A DNA stretch of 64,000 nt, taken from positions 288,001 to 352,000 of the forward strand of contig CAXXUA010000013.1 in the NCBI GenBank assembly GCA_963663765.2. Reading direction: 5' to 3'. Positions 49,425 to 58,302 of this stretch are shown piece after piece (position 1 is the stretch's first letter; each line of letters opens with the position of its first letter). The DNA comes from Candidatus Poribacteria bacterium. Its GTDB lineage: Bacteria > Poribacteria > WGA-4E > WGA-3G. A model generated the notes under the pieces. The model saw only the letters and a program-made list of their open reading frames with translations, ran no database searches and was not told the origin of the DNA. A program made the position numbers and the translations under genes.

Positions 49425-50237
49425 ATGCTTACCCAAACCCAAGTTGACACGTTTCGTGAGAAGGGTTTTCTTCTCGGCAACCGTGTTCTAACGGATGAAC
49501 AGGTAGAAGAATTAAGGACTGAATTAGCACGCGTCATTGATGATTACGAGAAAACCGATGTACAGCAACCCGTCCGAATAGCAAACCTCGGTGGACGAGA
49601 AGAAAGTCCTGTCTGGCAAATCGTAAATATTTGGGAGGCAAGTTCCGCCTACCACAGACTTATTTACAATCCCATCATCGTTGAAGAAATTGGACAACTC
49701 ACAGCAGCAACCGAGGTGCGTGTGTGGCACGACCAAATACAATACAAACCTCCCAAGATTGGCGGCATCAATAAGTGGCATCAAGATTCACCATTGTGGG
49801 GAATTCTTATGCCGAAAACAAGTCAAGTTACCGCTTGGGTTGCATTAGACGATGTTGACGAAAGCAATGGTTGTATGCGGATGGTACCCGGCTCCTATCA
49901 TTGGGGACCTCAGATGAAATTTTTAGGTTCAGTGAGAGACATCCATACGATGCATGATCACTTTGAAGAAAACAAACTCTCCGTAGAACTTTGTCCAGTG
50001 CCAAAAGGGCATGTGCATTTTCATCATTCTTTGACATGGCACGGTTCACACGACAATTCCAGTGACGCCGCTCGACGTGCTATCGCAGTGCACTATATGA
50101 CCGATGAAACCGTCTATTTTGAAAGTGGAAATCATCTCATGAAACAATTTGTTAATGTCAATGATGGAGAAAAATTAACAGGGGAACATTTCCCAATTGT
50201 CATGGATTCTGGAGTACCGACAAACCCAACTGCTTAG
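49425..50237 (+). CDS. Phytanoyl-CoA dioxygenase (PhyH) family protein
   Basis: WHQD, WVALDDVDESNGCMRMVPGS, HHSLTWHGS..N.S..RRA. Confidence 0.92.
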   Translation: MLTQTQVDTFREKGFLLGNRVLTDEQVEELRTELARVIDDYEKTDVQQPVRIANLGGREESPVWQIVNIWEASSAYHRLIYNPIIVEEIGQLTAATEVRVWHDQIQYKPPKIGGINKWHQDSPLWGILMPKTSQVTAWVALDDVDESNGCMRMVPGSYHWGPQMKFLGSVRDIHTMHDHFEENKLSVELCPVPKGHVHFHHSLTWHGSHDNSSDAARRAIAVHYMTDETVYFESGNHLMKQFVNVNDGEKLTGEHFPIVMDSGVPTNPTA

Positions 50238-50307
50238 TCCATAAGCATCAATATGCTGGAATATATAGTTACTAATCCTGCGAGAACATAAGCATTAGGA
50301 GACAAAT

Positions 50308-51114
50308 ATGCTAAACCAAGTCCAAATCAACGCATTTCAAGAAAAGGGATTCCTTCTTGGAAGTTGTGTTTTGATCGATGAACAGGTTGATGAACTACGT
50401 TCAGAATTGGCACGTGTCATTGATGACTACGAAAAGGACGATATTCCGCAACCGGTACATATCGCCAACCTTGGAGGTCGAGCAGAAACACCTGTCTGGC
50501 AAATTGTGAATATCTGGGAGGCAAGTTCCGCCTATCGCAAACTGGTTCATAACCCTATCATCGTTGAAGAAATTGGACAACTCACAGCAGCAACCGAGGT
50601 GCGGGTGTGGCACGACCAAATACAATACAAACCACCAGAAATAGGTGGTGTGAATATGTGGCATCAAGATTCACCATACTGGCCAATTCTTACACCGAAA
50701 ACCAGCCAAGTAACCGCTTGGGTCGCATTGGATGATGTTGACGAAAGCAATGGATGTATGCGGATGGTACCTGGGTCATACCACTGGGGTAATCAGATTG
50801 CTTTTCTACATTCTGTCAAGGACATCCATTCTATGCCAGCTCGCTTTGAAGAAAATGAATTAGATGTTGAATTATGTCCTGTGCCAAAAGGTTATGTGCA
50901 TTTTCATCATTCCTTGACATGGCACGGTTCCCATGCCAACAGCAGTGGTCAACCGCGCCGCGCCATAGCGGTGCATTATATGACAAGTGATACCCTTTAC
51001 GATGCAAATGGAAACCATGTTATGAAACGGTTTGTTACAGTCAATGACGGTGACAAATTAGCTGGTGATAGTTTTCCGCTTGTGATGGACGCGGGAAGTC
51101 CTACCATCCCATAG
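50308..51114 (+). CDS. PhyH family protein (tandem paralogue)
   Basis: Same motifs; closely similar to the upstream gene. Confidence 0.92.
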   Translation: MLNQVQINAFQEKGFLLGSCVLIDEQVDELRSELARVIDDYEKDDIPQPVHIANLGGRAETPVWQIVNIWEASSAYRKLVHNPIIVEEIGQLTAATEVRVWHDQIQYKPPEIGGVNMWHQDSPYWPILTPKTSQVTAWVALDDVDESNGCMRMVPGSYHWGNQIAFLHSVKDIHSMPARFEENELDVELCPVPKGYVHFHHSLTWHGSHANSSGQPRRAIAVHYMTSDTLYDANGNHVMKRFVTVNDGDKLAGDSFPLVMDAGSPTIP

Positions 51115-52845: not shown

Positions 52846-53613
52846 ATGAAATTATTTACAACTATTCTCATATTTGTTCTTATCTGCAGTGTCATCAATA
52901 CCTGGGCACTAAAAGATGACAAGGCACTTGTATTATATCTCCCTTTTGATGAGGGCAATGGCGATACGGCAATGGATGCAAGCGAAAGTAATCTGGAAGC
53001 AACCCTAAATGGCGCTACATGGTCTACAGATGGTAAAATTGATGGATGTATTCACTTGGAAACTACAGAACATTATGTAGAAATTGAAGACGTTGACGAA
53101 CTTGACATCACCGGCGAAATAACGATTCAAACATGGTTTTTCCCAAAACAATCCCAAGGTGATTCAAACCTAATGGGACGGAGAACATCAGAAAACAAAG
53201 GAGGTTATGTTCTTCAGTGGAGTGCAGAGTTTACAGGTACACCACAAATTGAAACATGGATTGACATTGCAGGATATAAAGGGACACGCAACAAACAAAC
53301 GATTAAACCTGAGTTAGAGGAATGGCATCATGTCGCTTCTACCTATGATGGTGAAAAGGTTCGTCAATATATTGATGGTGAATTAGATGTTGAAATCGAT
53401 GCACCAGCTGGAAACATCACCAGCGTTGATGCTGTCTTCCGCATCGGTAAATCCCAAACGCCTCTCGGTGGTGCAATAGGTTATGTAGACGAGGTAGCCA
53501 TCTACAACCGGGCACTCTCTGATGATGAAATCAAACAGGATATGAACCAAGGGGTGCTGTTTGATGTTACTCCTAATGGTAAACTGGCTACAACATGGGC
53601 AAAGGGTGTGTAA
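52846..53613 (+). CDS. Exported LamG domain protein; last codons replaced by the IS insertion
   Basis: LYLPFDEGNG, WHHVASTYDG, VDEVAIYNRALS, VTPNGKLATTWA|KGV*; original tail NLKLFIK* lies after the IS. Confidence 0.88.
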   Translation: MKLFTTILIFVLICSVINTWALKDDKALVLYLPFDEGNGDTAMDASESNLEATLNGATWSTDGKIDGCIHLETTEHYVEIEDVDELDITGEITIQTWFFPKQSQGDSNLMGRRTSENKGGYVLQWSAEFTGTPQIETWIDIAGYKGTRNKQTIKPELEEWHHVASTYDGEKVRQYIDGELDVEIDAPAGNITSVDAVFRIGKSQTPLGGAIGYVDEVAIYNRALSDDEIKQDMNQGVLFDVTPNGKLATTWAKGV

Positions 53614-55061
53614 AGTTTTTGTCACAAGAATGTACTGAATACAGATCTTGCTTAGTATTAGGTTAAATGGTATCCTTCTAAAAAACACTTTTTTATCAGA
53701 GAGGATACCAATGTTTAGTATATCATTAGCAAGTTGTGAAGTCGAAGAGTTTAGAGAAGATGCAATCCATTTTGTAGAAAAGATCAATAATGTTTTACAC
53801 ACCCTTAGTTCAGACAGTCTTTATGTAGACGCTATGGAGATAATAGCCTTAGAGACGATGCGTTCGTTAGGTCAAATGATGTTAGAAATGGGTGTTCTCA
53901 AACATTCCGTTGAACAAGTTTCTGGATCTGTTGAATGTCCACAATGTCAACAAGCGTGTCGTCCGTATCGTAAAAGAGAACGCCGTATTACGACGCTATG
54001 TGGTGTTATTCGTGTTGACCGTTGGGTGTATCGTTGTGCTTCGGGTCATTATCATTTTCCGTGGGATACGAAAGAAAAGTTGAAAGGTCAATACACACAT
54101 CGTGTAGCTGAAGTGATGTGTCGTATGTCTGCGCGTCTTGACTTCAGGGAGGCAGCAGAGGAGTTGTTTCGTCAAGGGATAGAAGTCAGTCATACGACCC
54201 TCAATCAAAATGTGCGTGAATGGTCAAAAGCGTTGCGGGATTCACAACAAGTGGAAACACAAAAACTTGAGGCAAATCAGCGTTGGTATGTGAGTTGTGA
54301 TGGATGCCACACCAACTCACAAGAGGGGTGGAAAGAAACCAAAGTTGGTTGTATTTATAGAGATTATCCACAACCTCCAAATAGTTCTGGTGCGACACCG
54401 AGTGCGAGAACACCAAGCATTCGTTATGTTGCGGAGCGTGAGAATGCTGCTCATTTCGGTAAAGCGTTGTATAAGTTAGCAACGCAGAGCGGCATCTATC
54501 AAGAAGATATAGGCACGCAAGAGGTCGTGTTTATCGGAGATGGAGCGGCGTGGATATGGAACTTAGCGGCTGAATACTTCCCGAATGCTGTAGAGATTGT
54601 GGATTACATGCATGCCAAATCACATCTTTATGATGTGGCTAAAGTTGCCTTTGGTGAGACAGAAACAGAAGACGTAGAAACTTGGGTCACAGAGACAGAA
54701 CCCTTTCTTTTTGATGGCAACATTCCAGAAGTTGTCTCACGTATCCGTGCTTTAGCCACACAGCACCCAGACGTTTGTGAGATTTTAGTAAGAGAAACAG
54801 GTTATTTTGAAAAACACGCGAAACGGATGCAATATAAAACGTTTAGAGATAAGGGGTATCAGGTTGGGAGTGGTGTGATTGAGAGTGCGTGTAAACATGT
54901 TGTGGGACAAAGGTGTAAACAAGCTTCTATGAGATGGGAGAAACCGGGTATTAATGCTGTTCTAAGTTGGAGATGTCTGTTGAAGAATAATGCCTGGGAC
55001 AGATATTGGTATCCAGACACAAAAGCCGCATAACACTTAGTGACAAAAACTTTACACACCC
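53604..55061 (+). mobile_element. ISKra4-like (UPF0236) IS copy 2, intact
   Basis: 22-bp TIR GGGTGTGTAAAGTTTTTGTCAC; 8-bp TSD TGGGCAAA. Confidence 0.93.
53711..55033 (+). CDS. ISKra4-like transposase
   Basis: CPQC Zn motif, SCDG, FIGDGAAWIW, VDYMHA, VGSGVIESACK; RBS GAGG. Confidence 0.9.
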   Translation: MFSISLASCEVEEFREDAIHFVEKINNVLHTLSSDSLYVDAMEIIALETMRSLGQMMLEMGVLKHSVEQVSGSVECPQCQQACRPYRKRERRITTLCGVIRVDRWVYRCASGHYHFPWDTKEKLKGQYTHRVAEVMCRMSARLDFREAAEELFRQGIEVSHTTLNQNVREWSKALRDSQQVETQKLEANQRWYVSCDGCHTNSQEGWKETKVGCIYRDYPQPPNSSGATPSARTPSIRYVAERENAAHFGKALYKLATQSGIYQEDIGTQEVVFIGDGAAWIWNLAAEYFPNAVEIVDYMHAKSHLYDVAKVAFGETETEDVETWVTETEPFLFDGNIPEVVSRIRALATQHPDVCEILVRETGYFEKHAKRMQYKTFRDKGYQVGSGVIESACKHVVGQRCKQASMRWEKPGINAVLSWRCLLKNNAWDRYWYPDTKAA

Positions 55062-55755: not shown

Positions 55756-56502
55756 GTGCGTCTTGAAAAATATATCGCTTCCGCAGGTATAGCATCGCGG
55801 CGCGCAGTCAAGCGAGCCATTCGTGAGGGATACGCCTCTGTTAACGGCACAACAATCCGCATTCCCGGACATCCGATTGATATGGAAAACGATTGTATTC
55901 TGTTTGAAGGAAAAGTGGTTGAACCCCTCGCTGAACGAGTTTATATCATGTTGAACAAACCAGCAGGTTATATAACTACCCGGCATGACGAACGTGGACG
56001 ACCAACAGTGATGGACTTGCTAACAGAATTACCGAAATCCATCTATCCAGTAGGACGTTTAGATTTGGAGACAGAAGGTCTCCTACTATTTACCAACGAT
56101 GGTGAGTTCGCTTATCAGTTGATGCATCCCAGTCATGAGATAGATAAGACTTACATTGCTTGGGTAAATGGTGTTTTGGGTAAACCCGCACTTGAACACC
56201 TACGCAACGGAGTGGACATAACAGGGGGGAAAACAGCACCTGCAAAAATAAAACAGCTTGATGTGAAAAACGAACTTAAAAAAGTTGTTAAAAAGAAAAC
56301 GAACAAATTCGGATTAGTAGCAAAATATAGGGTAATTATACATGAAGGGAAAAAACGGCAAATTCGTCTGATGTTTAAAGCGGTGGGACACCGAGTGACA
56401 CGTTTGAAACGGATACGTATCGGCACGTTGCAATTGGGCAATCTTCCACAGGGGCAATATCGATTTCTTACCCCCGCAGAAGTTGCTGATTTACAAAATT
56501 AG
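55756..56502 (+). CDS. rluB: rRNA pseudouridine synthase, RsuA/RluB family
   Basis: S4 domain RLEKYIASAGIASRR, NKPAGY, VGRLDLETEGLLLFTNDG, HEGKKRQIR. Confidence 0.85.
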   Translation: MRLEKYIASAGIASRRAVKRAIREGYASVNGTTIRIPGHPIDMENDCILFEGKVVEPLAERVYIMLNKPAGYITTRHDERGRPTVMDLLTELPKSIYPVGRLDLETEGLLLFTNDGEFAYQLMHPSHEIDKTYIAWVNGVLGKPALEHLRNGVDITGGKTAPAKIKQLDVKNELKKVVKKKTNKFGLVAKYRVIIHEGKKRQIRLMFKAVGHRVTRLKRIRIGTLQLGNLPQGQYRFLTPAEVADLQN

Positions 56503-57638
56503 TTATCGGTTTTGCCTTCTGCAGCTAACTGCTCAAGACGTTGTAGTACAGTATTCGCTCTGAGTTTAATCTGTTCACTGGTCGTGTGATTGACTAACTT
56601 CTCAAGTACTTCTGTTGCTTTATCATATTGCTTACTGAGCATATATGTAACACCCAGAAAATATTGAGCATCTTCATATTCGTCACTCTTCGGATACATG
56701 TCAACCACTTTTTTGAAGTGCATTTCAGCGTTTTTGACAAGATTTGCATCATCAGGTTTACGTTGAAGTTGCATTGCATAAGCGAGCCCGAATTGGGTGT
56801 GTAATTTTGGCAGCAGTCCCGATTCGTTTTCAGGGTCTTTTGCCATGACCTTTTCACTGAACGTGAGTGCATCTTTTATATTTGCTTTTTTCAGGTATAC
56901 TAAAGCAAATTCAGTGTTTAACTCAACATCATCAGGCATCATCTCACTGATCTTGAGTGCTTTTTTCATTTGATCTTTGCCGAGATAGTAGATACCAAAT
57001 GCGCGGTTCAGATCAACATCATCGGGCATCTTTTCACTGATTGGCATTGCTTTATCAAGTTGTTGACGTTGCAAATAGAAAATGGCAATCTGACTGTTCA
57101 GTTTCGGATCGTCAGGCATCTTCTTTAATTTCGTCAATACTTCTTGGAATGCTTTCTCTTTTTTCAGAACATCTTCCATTTCCGGCAAGAATAGATCTGG
57201 TGGTTTGTAACCAGAGACATTCTTGATAACACCACCATCGGGGGCGATGAATAGGATTGCGGGAAACCCCTTAACACCGTATTTTTTCTGCGCTTCAGCA
57301 TTTTCGGGGTGTTCTTTAAGTTCGGGATTAACCTTTACGGGAACGAAGTTCTCTGCGATAGTAACTATACGTTCATCGGTGAATGTGTCGGCGTCCAGCC
57401 GCTTACACCATCCTCACCACTCCGTGTAGAAGTCCATCATAATCGGTTTACCCGTTTCAACGGACATTTTGGTTGCTTCCTCAATAGACATGCCCCATAC
57501 GACTTGTTTGACTTCAGTTGCGTCTTGTTTGGCTTCCCCTTCACCTTCTGCAAAGACAGGCATTGATACCGTCAGTAACAAAAGAACGCAGAAACCTGCC
57601 AGACAGGGAACGTATCGGTGAAAAACAGAATTAATCAT
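56499..57638 (-). CDS. Exported thioredoxin-like (UxxC) + TPR selenoprotein; in-frame UGA at 57414-57416
   Basis: ORFs 57414-57638 and 56499-57188 are one frame: KPIMMDFYTEW-UGA-GWCKRLDADTF...FVPVKVNP...YGVKGFPAILF...TPRs; 379 aa. Confidence 0.88.
57381..57413 (-). promoter_or_regulatory. Putative bacterial SECIS element
   Basis: Immediately 3' of the UGA: GGAUGGUGU-AAG-CGGC-UGGAC-GCCG-ACACAUUC; apical loop begins 16 nt after the UGA with G at loop position 2. Confidence 0.72.
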
Positions 57639-57790
57639 TAATTCTCTCCTTATTTTTACTTATGCGATCAATTAGGTACGAACCTAAATTTTTGTGTTAA
57701 GCAGAAACTCCACAAAACAGCGAAATCGCTTTATTAGTTGACAACATAATATCACATTTAAAATAGTCTGTCCAGAACAAATTTTATTTT

Positions 57791-58302
57791 GGGTGTGTAA
57801 AGTTTTTGCACAGAGGTACAAACTTTTGTTCTCTTTATTCCCGTAGGGACGCAATGTTTATAGATAGGTGTAATCACCCTCTCTTGAGTTCCGTAGGAAC
57901 GACATAGAAGAATAAACATATCGTCCCTACGGGACTAAAGAACTGGGAAGGGTACTTGTTTTCTATAAACATTTCGTCCCTACGGGACTGAAGAGTATGG
58001 TTGATATTAACAATATTTCCTTATATTGACACCTATGGGTCTCTGTGCCCGCAATCTCTCATTTAATCAGTTGCGGCGGGGCACAGAGACCCTATAGGTG
58101 TCAACTTAAGGATTTAACCTCTTGTGGGAGGGGTTTTCAACCCCGATTTTTTAGTGCATTTCCGCTCAAATCGGGGTTGAAAACCCCTCCCACAAGAGAA
58201 AATGCAAACAATATTTTCTTAAGTTGACACCTATACGGCGGGGCACAGAGACCCCGCTCTACAATGGAGAATGTGCAGTTTGTGCAAAAACTTTACACAC
58301 CC
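57791..58302. mobile_element. MITE using ISKra4-like ends, filled with other repeats
   Basis: TIR GGGTGTGTAAAGTTTTTGCACA on both ends; 9-bp TSD TTTTATTTT; contains a family C cluster, GGGTCTCTGTGCCC hairpins and a family E MITE. Confidence 0.9.
58097..58231. mobile_element. MITE family E copy
   Basis: TA|GGTGTCAACTTAAG...CTTAAGTTGACACC|TA, nearly identical to 15668-15803. Confidence 0.85.

Follow-up and report, generated by a model that had tools for sequence, protein, structure and literature searches.

The window analysed here is a stretch of 64,000 nucleotides from a Candidatus Poribacteria bacterium, and its minus strand carries a thioredoxin-like gene that is divided in two by an in-frame TGA codon. 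The two apparent open reading frames (ORFs) are almost certainly one intact exported redox enzyme with a protein-binding tail of tetratricopeptide repeats (TPR). Judging from comparison of the sequences, the TGA at codon 75 in all likelihood encodes selenocysteine (Sec).

The minus-strand sequence 57638-56499 was translated and gave 379 codons followed by TAA, with the TGA at codon 75 (57416-57414) as the sole internal stop. This TGA lies in the context DFYTEW-*-GWCKRLDA, at the first Cys position of the thioredoxin WCGWC motif. The initial annotation, made from the letters of the window, had noted that the ORF list splits the gene into ORFs of 74 and 229 amino acids. It had also stated that both share one frame interrupted only by a TGA at the first Cys of WCxxC, and that the segments FVPVKVN and GFPAILF (with the cis-Pro) continue in frame after it. 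The translation bore out each of these points. As a contig of the public run X2 showed 0 differences from the window over 56400-57647, and was thus identical across the gene, the TGA is not an assembly or sequencing error. Contigs of two RNA runs also span the TGA codon and, among those listed, show no difference at it; since they are silent on level, strand and translation, they are a weak sign of expression. In the public protein sets, the protein is represented mostly by C-terminal fragments labelled 'hypothetical' or 'TPR protein'.

The codon is kept among relatives. Of 60 related genomes, 58 have one TGA in their best match, and the remaining two gave distant matches only. Codon 75 was covered in 58 of the 59 loci examined and was TGA in all 58. 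This set includes the window's own copy and duplicates; after their removal, TGA was present in 50/50 non-redundant close homologues. The in-frame UGA aligns with the redox Cys of homologues. The closest named record is from Candidatus Poribacteria for 27/29 loci. The pattern TGA-N6-TGY-N3-CGGCTGGAYGC was found in 137 of 176 genomes of the phylum (reversed control, 0), namely in 136 of the 158 relatives from the window's order (four families) and in none of the 17 genomes outside it. Eight pattern-negative genomes of this order were searched and all have the gene with one TGA. In the other Poribacteria orders, one of the 17 genomes has the gene, also with TGA, and no match was found in the other 16 (E 1e-18, single query). 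The gene is mostly single-copy and is retained across one whole Poribacteria order.

Two records from outside Poribacteria, L085 and L086, have the identical TGA and hairpin, and their genomes have selA. The phylum of L086 is titled Fidelibacterota, which we take to be equivalent to Marinisomatota. Of 151 genomes drawn from this phylum, 69 gave a match (E <1e-25, catalytic region covered), 56 with TGA and 13 without a stop. At the codon column, 30 Fidelibacterota loci were compared, and 22 of them have TGA and eight a Cys codon. The selA gene was found over cut-off in 42 of the 43 Fidelibacterota genomes tested, including all 12 without a stop. An origin of the Cys forms from loss of the Sec machinery was therefore rejected, as 12/12 genomes without a stop in the match have selA.

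The TGA is followed by a hairpin that probably acts as a selenocysteine insertion sequence (SECIS). It had been described as a two-tier hairpin with a UGGAC loop beginning 16 nt from the UGA, and this position, within CGGC-UGGAC-GCCG, was confirmed. The bacterial SECIS (bSECIS) model has a loop of 3-9 nt, a stem of 4-16 bp, a G in the first two loop positions, a distance of 16-37 nt from the UGA and an energy of at most -7.5 kcal/mol (PMC13188914). The hairpin lies within these ranges with a 5-nt loop, a 4-bp stem, a G at loop position 2, a spacing of 16 nt and -12.7 kcal/mol, its stem length and spacing being at the lower bounds of the model. The genome's SelD has the identical geometry, that is, a 4-bp stem and a 5-nt loop 16 nt from its UGA. 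The lower tier of the described hairpin is probable in the window copy and is missing from the family consensus fold, in which RNAalifold retained only three upper pairs. Folding against shuffled sequences was not decisive: z was -1.9 at 42 nt, where 9/200 shuffles were equally good, and -0.2 to -0.9 for longer stretches.

The comparison of homologues, and not the energy, was decisive for taking the hairpin as a likely SECIS. In the 50 non-redundant homologues, codons +5, +6 and +8 are CGG (50/50), CTG (50/50) and GCC (49/50), while the same codons have 13%, 15% and 13% use elsewhere in those genes. Because the peptide encoded over the hairpin is the same in Sec and Cys forms, selection at the RNA level can be read directly. 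In all, 147 non-redundant loci (75 TGA and 72 Cys) were contrasted. Where RLDA is encoded, CGG-CTG-GAY-GCY is used by 74/74 TGA forms and by 3/64 Cys forms. This contrast is subject to three limits: an RLDA-containing pattern was used to pick the metagenome Cys set, that set includes many shorter proteins that are not orthologues, and related loci do not count as independent. In the Fidelibacterota set, the 4-bp stem is kept in 21/21 listed TGA forms and in 0/8 Cys forms, even though selA is present in the genomes of these eight. The TGA forms thus conserve the hairpin, which most Cys forms lack.

No covariation was seen in the upper stem in a first count of pairs, because this stem is nearly invariant in the set used. 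Meanwhile, in nine pattern-negative loci the second stem pair changes from G-C to A-U in four and to U-A in two, variants that change Arg to Gln or Leu; the stem is mismatched in two of the nine and its closing pair is lost in one. In a test for compensatory changes, five cells among 21 distinct rows were changed on both sides and none of 500 shuffles had as many, in an alignment deliberately enriched with pattern-negative variants. These changes perhaps represent two or three events.

Some observations weigh against this reading of the hairpin. The pattern-negative loci L204 and L205 have a stem mismatch, and L209, from another order, keeps CTG-GAT without the canonical stem. The window copy itself prefers a shifted register, GCG/CGC with a 6-nt loop (-13.5 kcal/mol, pair probability 0.76), over the register first described, which is 0.8 kcal/mol less stable (pair probability 0.24). 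The latter register was nevertheless the one conserved in homologues, as CGGC-UGGAY-GCCG.

The machinery for Sec was found in the genome, which is 97.8% complete. The selA (620.8 bits), selB (361.6 bits) and selD genes are over cut-off, and selD carries its own in-frame TGA. The gene for tRNA-Sec lies immediately behind selB (G000:C4:284343-286385), and selA is about 10 kb off on the opposite strand. All four genes selA, selB, selC and selD, which the proposal of a Sec-using organism called for, are therefore present over cut-off. Release factor 2 was also found (499 bits), and TGA ends 359 of the 1959 genome ORFs of at least 350 codons; hence TGA is not reassigned genome-wide.

These data bear on two other explanations of the TGA. 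A genome-wide reassignment to Trp (code 4), giving W-W-G-W-C, or to Gly (code 25) would agree with the W found at the codon-75 position in five database proteins (P0001, P0044, P0050, P0053 and P0057), for which the simplest account would be that the gene caller used code 4. Reassignment is contradicted by release factor 2 and the TGA-terminated ORFs. In addition, the one tRNA with a TCA anticodon at default stringency is the Sec tRNA, and other homologues have Cys in that column. We consider reassignment highly improbable. The same holds for a true stop, which would make the gene a pseudogene or two separate proteins. Gene callers do split the gene, databases carry its C-terminal fragment, and TGA is a frequent terminator of the long ORFs just mentioned. 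However, homologues in two phyla, with identities down to 25-40%, have this stop at the column of the catalytic Cys, there is no second stop or frameshift, the hairpin is conserved and covarying, and a cut at the TGA would split the thioredoxin fold. Hence there is hardly any likelihood left for a true stop. The reading as a Sec redox protein of a Sec-using organism was supported, since none of the three findings named against it at the outset (no Sec machinery, TGA unique to this assembly among relatives with Cys codons, no conservation of the hairpin in TGA-bearing homologues) was obtained.

The genome was also surveyed for other TGA codons with a similar hairpin, as had been suggested. A motif-only scan for UxxC and CxxU read-throughs was swamped by chance matches, and a hairpin-plus-coding filter was used instead. 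The loose hairpin filter passed 319 of the 19,731 TGA read-through candidates (1.6%), and 17 filtered candidates were also coding-like on both sides, including the thioredoxin-TPR gene, SelD, which shares the hairpin geometry, and a formate-dehydrogenase-like protein. The count with the exact geometry (1/19,731) was defined after the hairpin had been seen and was not used as a test. The genome has at least 17 Sec candidates besides this gene, and 12 of the 17 that were listed have N-termini that look export-like by eye. Two with an identical start and Sec context lie at C5:1756676 and C5:1760398; C15:337999 has a rhodanese-like candidate, and another lies at C14:7140. Weak matches to the gene were seen at C4:83625-83897 (L056), with two TGA, and at C5:1441445-1441738 (L051), with TAG and TAA. 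In other genomes, distant thioredoxin-domain matches in long frames containing TGA (G037:C27:33535-33864, G233:C1:390270-390662 and G010:C35:27192-27584) could be Sec forms of DsbD.

The history of the Sec codon was examined in a quick tree of 146 domains and in a careful, unrooted tree of 47 domains (LG+G4), from which the Sec-to-RLDA columns were removed and L209 was left out; the groups were named after the first tree had been seen. The Sec forms of Poribacteria group together (100/97) and are nested, with seven Cys proteins, in a larger group (99/99); those of Fidelibacterota fall in another group (97/83), intermixed with the Cys forms of that phylum. A single clade of all Sec forms was rejected (approximately unbiased test, p-AU 0.00034), in part owing to Cys forms that fall among the Sec forms of Fidelibacterota. 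A tree that unites the Poribacteria Sec forms and the entire Fidelibacterota group was rejected more weakly (p-AU 0.013). Since the trees do not join the two Sec groups, there may have been two origins with the same hairpin, an old Sec form that often reverted, or transfer of a short cassette. Repeated Cys-to-Sec conversion has been reported in thiol redox proteins (PMC1794560). A broader and doubtful proposal is that the protein is an envelope Sec 'chaperedoxin', the reducing hub of a mostly exported selenoproteome, in which Sec would have been gained at least twice, in Poribacteria and in Fidelibacterota, the identical 12-base SECIS arising through synonymous codons in an ancestral CKRLDA. 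If there were two gains, they would be a clean natural case of a coding-region SECIS arising without protein cost. Two divergent proteins with a Poribacteria-type N-terminus, P0072 and P0074, have C-D-T-C and S-R-W-C at the active site, respectively; P0074 nests among the Sec forms of the genus in the tree, and loss of Sec in these paralogues is possible.

The features of the gene and protein are collected in Table 1. The hydrophobic N-terminus, read by eye, suggests export; its core has an 11-residue mean hydropathy of 2.95, and similar cores occur in most homologues. Several Fidelibacterota forms have lipoprotein-like starts. Paralogues without a signal and with a longer C-terminus were seen at L065:3293-4603, L040, L041, L042 and L044, the L065 copy standing in tandem upstream of the exported copy. 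The thioredoxin domain matches PF13098 (53.6 bits, cut-off 27), PF13899, PF03190 and PF00085, and its nearest folds are 3f9u (Z 16.6), 2ju5 (Z 16.6) and 1vrs (Z 16.3). Apart from the probable Sec75, the mature protein contains Cys78 as its sole Cys. Pfam TPR models span residues 161-355, and the TPR part matches the fold of the YbgF TPR (2xev, Z 15.0, root-mean-square deviation (rmsd) 1.9 over 121 residues). The tandem repeat first read as EKMPDDVDLN/EMMPDDVELN is real but larger than stated, with three 30-residue units at residues 172, 202 and 232. Across the 58 loci, duplicates included, there is one unit in 15, two in 2, three in 34 and four in 3, with 4 unscored. AlphaFold2, run with a 38-sequence alignment, gave one confident chain (predicted local distance difference test (pLDDT) 93.8, predicted template modelling score (pTM) 0.83), in which a long helix is predicted to link the thioredoxin fold to a series of helix pairs. 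A promoter-like candidate, a weak one, lies about 110 nt upstream of the gene.

Table 1. Coordinates of the gene, its RNA elements and the parts of the encoded protein in the window
Feature	Position	Strand	Basis
Whole gene, TGA as probable Sec, TAA stop	56499..57638	-	Translation; single frame kept in homologues
TGA codon 75, probable selenocysteine, first position of U-G-W-C	57414..57416	-	Aligned with Cys of WCGWC homologues
Probable SECIS core: 4-bp stem CGGC/GCCG, 5-nt loop UGGAC (57397-57393), encodes R-L-D-A	57389..57401	-	Codon fixation, TGA/Cys contrast, compensatory changes
Full hairpin with lower stem GUGU/ACAC	57385..57408	-	Pair probabilities >0.9 in window copy; absent from family consensus fold
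Ribosome-binding site AGGAG, 5' of ATG	57646..57650	-	Seen in sequence
Candidate sigma-70-like promoter TGGACA-17-TATTAT with TG extension	57746..57774	-	Weak: 8 sites vs 5.2 expected by chance
Predicted cleavable signal peptide, residues 1-30, ends V-F-A	57549..57638	-	Hydrophobic core, by eye
Acidic variable linker, residues 31-43	57510..57548	-	pLDDT <50 in first 11 mature residues; length varies in alignment
Thioredoxin-fold domain, residues 44-160, DsbD-gamma/DsbH-like	57159..57509	-	Pfam and fold matches
Cys78, resolving cysteine	57405..57407	-	Invariant in alignment; sole Cys of mature protein
Pro126, cis-Pro loop (G-F-P)	57261..57263	-	Invariant column; cis geometry suggested by fold family
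Three tandem 30-residue two-helix repeats, residues 172-261	56856..57125	-	Alignment, model, repeat spacing
C-terminal TPR helices, residues 262-379	56502..56855	-	TPR_19, 52.6 bits vs cut-off 25

As to function, we propose that the protein acts in the cell envelope as a reducing and repair enzyme that is fed by DsbD and holds its clients with the TPR arm. Taken as a whole, this mechanism has about an even chance of being right. SelB with Sec-tRNA would bind the CGGC-UGGAY-GCCG hairpin so that UGA75 is read as Sec, a step for which the comparison of homologues argues strongly. The chain would be exported and, as its N-terminus suggests, cleaved after Ala30. By established thioredoxin chemistry, the Sec75 selenolate would attack a client disulfide or an oxidised thiol or selenol and Cys78 would resolve the intermediate, giving a selenenylsulfide. 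The N-terminal domain of the genome's DsbD would presumably re-reduce the enzyme, while the helical arm, by analogy with CnoX, may bind damaged or specific envelope proteins beside the active site. Likely clients would be the genome's many other exported Sec proteins (peroxiredoxin-like and metal-binding) and envelope cysteines.

The genome encodes one full three-domain DsbD (N-terminal, membrane and gamma domains); neither DsbB nor VKOR was found in it at its 97.8% completeness, and DsbA-like proteins gave weak matches. Three points favour a reducing role: the fold is closest to DsbD-gamma and DsbH, a source of reductant is present, and no known source of oxidant was found. A published chain of envelope reduction is ScsB-TlpA-PprX (PMC3322552). 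Several points count against the proposed mechanism. CnoX is cytoplasmic and fits the model poorly (template modelling score (TM) 0.22-0.27), so that the holdase step is put forward by analogy only. The dipeptide between Sec and Cys varies widely (GW, GF, GS, GH, SW, YW and PA), which disfavours a finely tuned potential and does not indicate a direction. In some Poribacteria there is an additional Sec copy that lacks a signal and is preceded by a ribosome-binding site of its own; the fold is therefore not tied to the envelope.

The surroundings of the gene were compared as well. It follows mnmE on the same strand in 40/58 loci and lies behind yidC and jag in 23/28 loci with 5-kb flanks. The mnmE gene was identified by Pfam, and the other two neighbours are presumably yidC and jag, judging from their sequences. 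This position could be taken to favour a selenoprotein that acts as a protein disulfide isomerase (PDI)-like isomerase or oxidative folding catalyst, in which the TPR arm replaces the peptide-binding domain and which possibly serves proteins freshly inserted by YidC. PDI domains also rank high in the sequence search of solved structures, the residue preceding the cis-Pro is F or Y as in PDI alignments, some homologues have G-H between Sec and Cys, and the TPR part resembles the envelope TPR proteins YfgM and YbgF. However, the yidC-jag-mnmE block is a general housekeeping cluster, mnmE is unrelated to the envelope, the gene has its own promoter candidate, and L060, L063 and several other loci are located elsewhere. 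As DsbB and VKOR were not found and the DsbA-like matches are weak, such a catalyst would also have no known source of oxidant, and we regard this role as unlikely.

The arm could instead be a specific docking module for one dedicated partner of the selenoprotein, for example in cytochrome c maturation or metal handling. The top fold match, 3f9u, comes from a putative exported protein related to cytochrome c biogenesis, of which it is the C-terminal domain, and the gene is mostly single-copy and kept throughout one order. Meanwhile, no recurrent redox or cytochrome partner gene was seen among the neighbours of the loci compared, and the range of one to four repeats among close relatives is a poor fit to one fixed interface. 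A dedicated partner thus seems rather unlikely, and the DsbD-fed reducing enzyme is the reading that we carry forward.

Other parts of the window around the gene were also noted. Between mnmE and the gene lies a stack of short high-copy repeats (57780-58300), whose positions each have up to about 480 blastn hits genome-wide. Of this block, 521 bases are missing from a contig of run X6, and the block is therefore strain-specific. On the plus strand, an ORF of 461 amino acids without a Pfam match (53648-55033) gives a transposase-like impression, which is our assumption. Two tandem similar ORFs of about 270 amino acids, which we take to be dioxygenase-like, lie together with a LamG-domain protein at 49425-51114 and 52846-53613 (plus strand).

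These results repair the annotation of a gene that is kept across a whole Poribacteria order, is common in Fidelibacterota and has been filed as TPR fragments. Its thioredoxin-TPR architecture has no family model over cut-off and is an addition to selenoprotein lists. The family is an unusually clean SECIS control, and its hairpin is minimal, with a 4-bp stem and the smallest spacing that the model permits. If the proposed function holds, the protein would be a soluble, monomeric-looking model for selenium chemistry outside the cytoplasm and would hint at how exported selenoproteins stay reduced.

The enzyme type is a known bacterial selenoprotein kind. Catalogues list the UxxC selenoproteins of PF13098 under 'thiol:disulfide interchange protein', with WP_011366075.1 as the exemplar (PMC13188914, PMC9312934, PMC2398784), and the class was named 'Trx-like 2' (cd02953) in the Global Ocean Sampling (GOS) survey. 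Compared by catalogue description, the protein studied here shares with them the best match to PF13098 (53.6 vs 27 bits), the UxxC motif (U-G-W-C) and a DsbD-gamma-like fold, and differs in its added signal peptide and 220-residue TPR arm. The TPR-fused form was not found in the catalogues searched: TPR is not mentioned in the available parts of PMC13188914, PMC2398784, PMC9312934, PMC12013277, PMC5029168 and BSepDB (PMC13326102), and neither is Poribacteria in those where the term was looked for. In the literature searched, nothing was found on this protein or on a TPR-fused selenothioredoxin; the one paper found on Sec in Poribacteria deals with hydrogenases (PMC13582414). BSepDB screened Marinisomatota genomes (PMC13326102 supplement), so these genes may already sit there under an existing family.

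Among the best 25 of 33 NCBIfam matches, no model is over cut-off. The Trx7/PDZ model NF041199 (CxxU) and the VPGUxxT models NF041382/3 (VPGU) reach about 23 bits against cut-offs of 275-350. The folds closest to the catalytic domain are chlamydial DsbH (2ju5, Z 16.6), described as a reducing periplasmic oxidoreductase (PMC5193440), and DsbD gamma (1vrs, Z 16.3). The DsbH model NF043050 gives 42 bits against a cut-off of 190, and DsbD NF001419 (53.7 vs 330 bits) and TsoB NF045694 (69.6 vs 805 bits) match within the gamma-like domain only. In contrast to DsbH and DsbD, the protein here has no membrane domain and has a TPR arm and, probably, Sec.

The top Foldseek match was CnoX/YbbN (E. coli 3qou; Caulobacter CnoX), with which the protein shares an N-terminal thioredoxin and a C-terminal TPR part. 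The Caulobacter CnoX combines reductase and holdase activity (PMC6282202). CnoX is a cytoplasmic protein that passes clients to GroEL and DnaK, whereas the protein here has a signal-like N-terminus and probable Sec; only the signal-less paralogues match CnoX in location. The fit to the whole model is poor (rmsd 21.7 at the TM given above), and the best 60 of the 137 sequence matches to the thioredoxin domain do not include 3qou. Another comparison is with the many exported proteins of the Cys type that also join thioredoxin and TPR parts, such as P0062, P0086 and P0088. They have no known function in the libraries searched, and they differ in having Cys for Sec and no hairpin codons. They are widespread (1082 representatives at E <1e-30) and share the same order of signal, thioredoxin and TPR parts, often together with the WCGWCKRLDA peptide itself.

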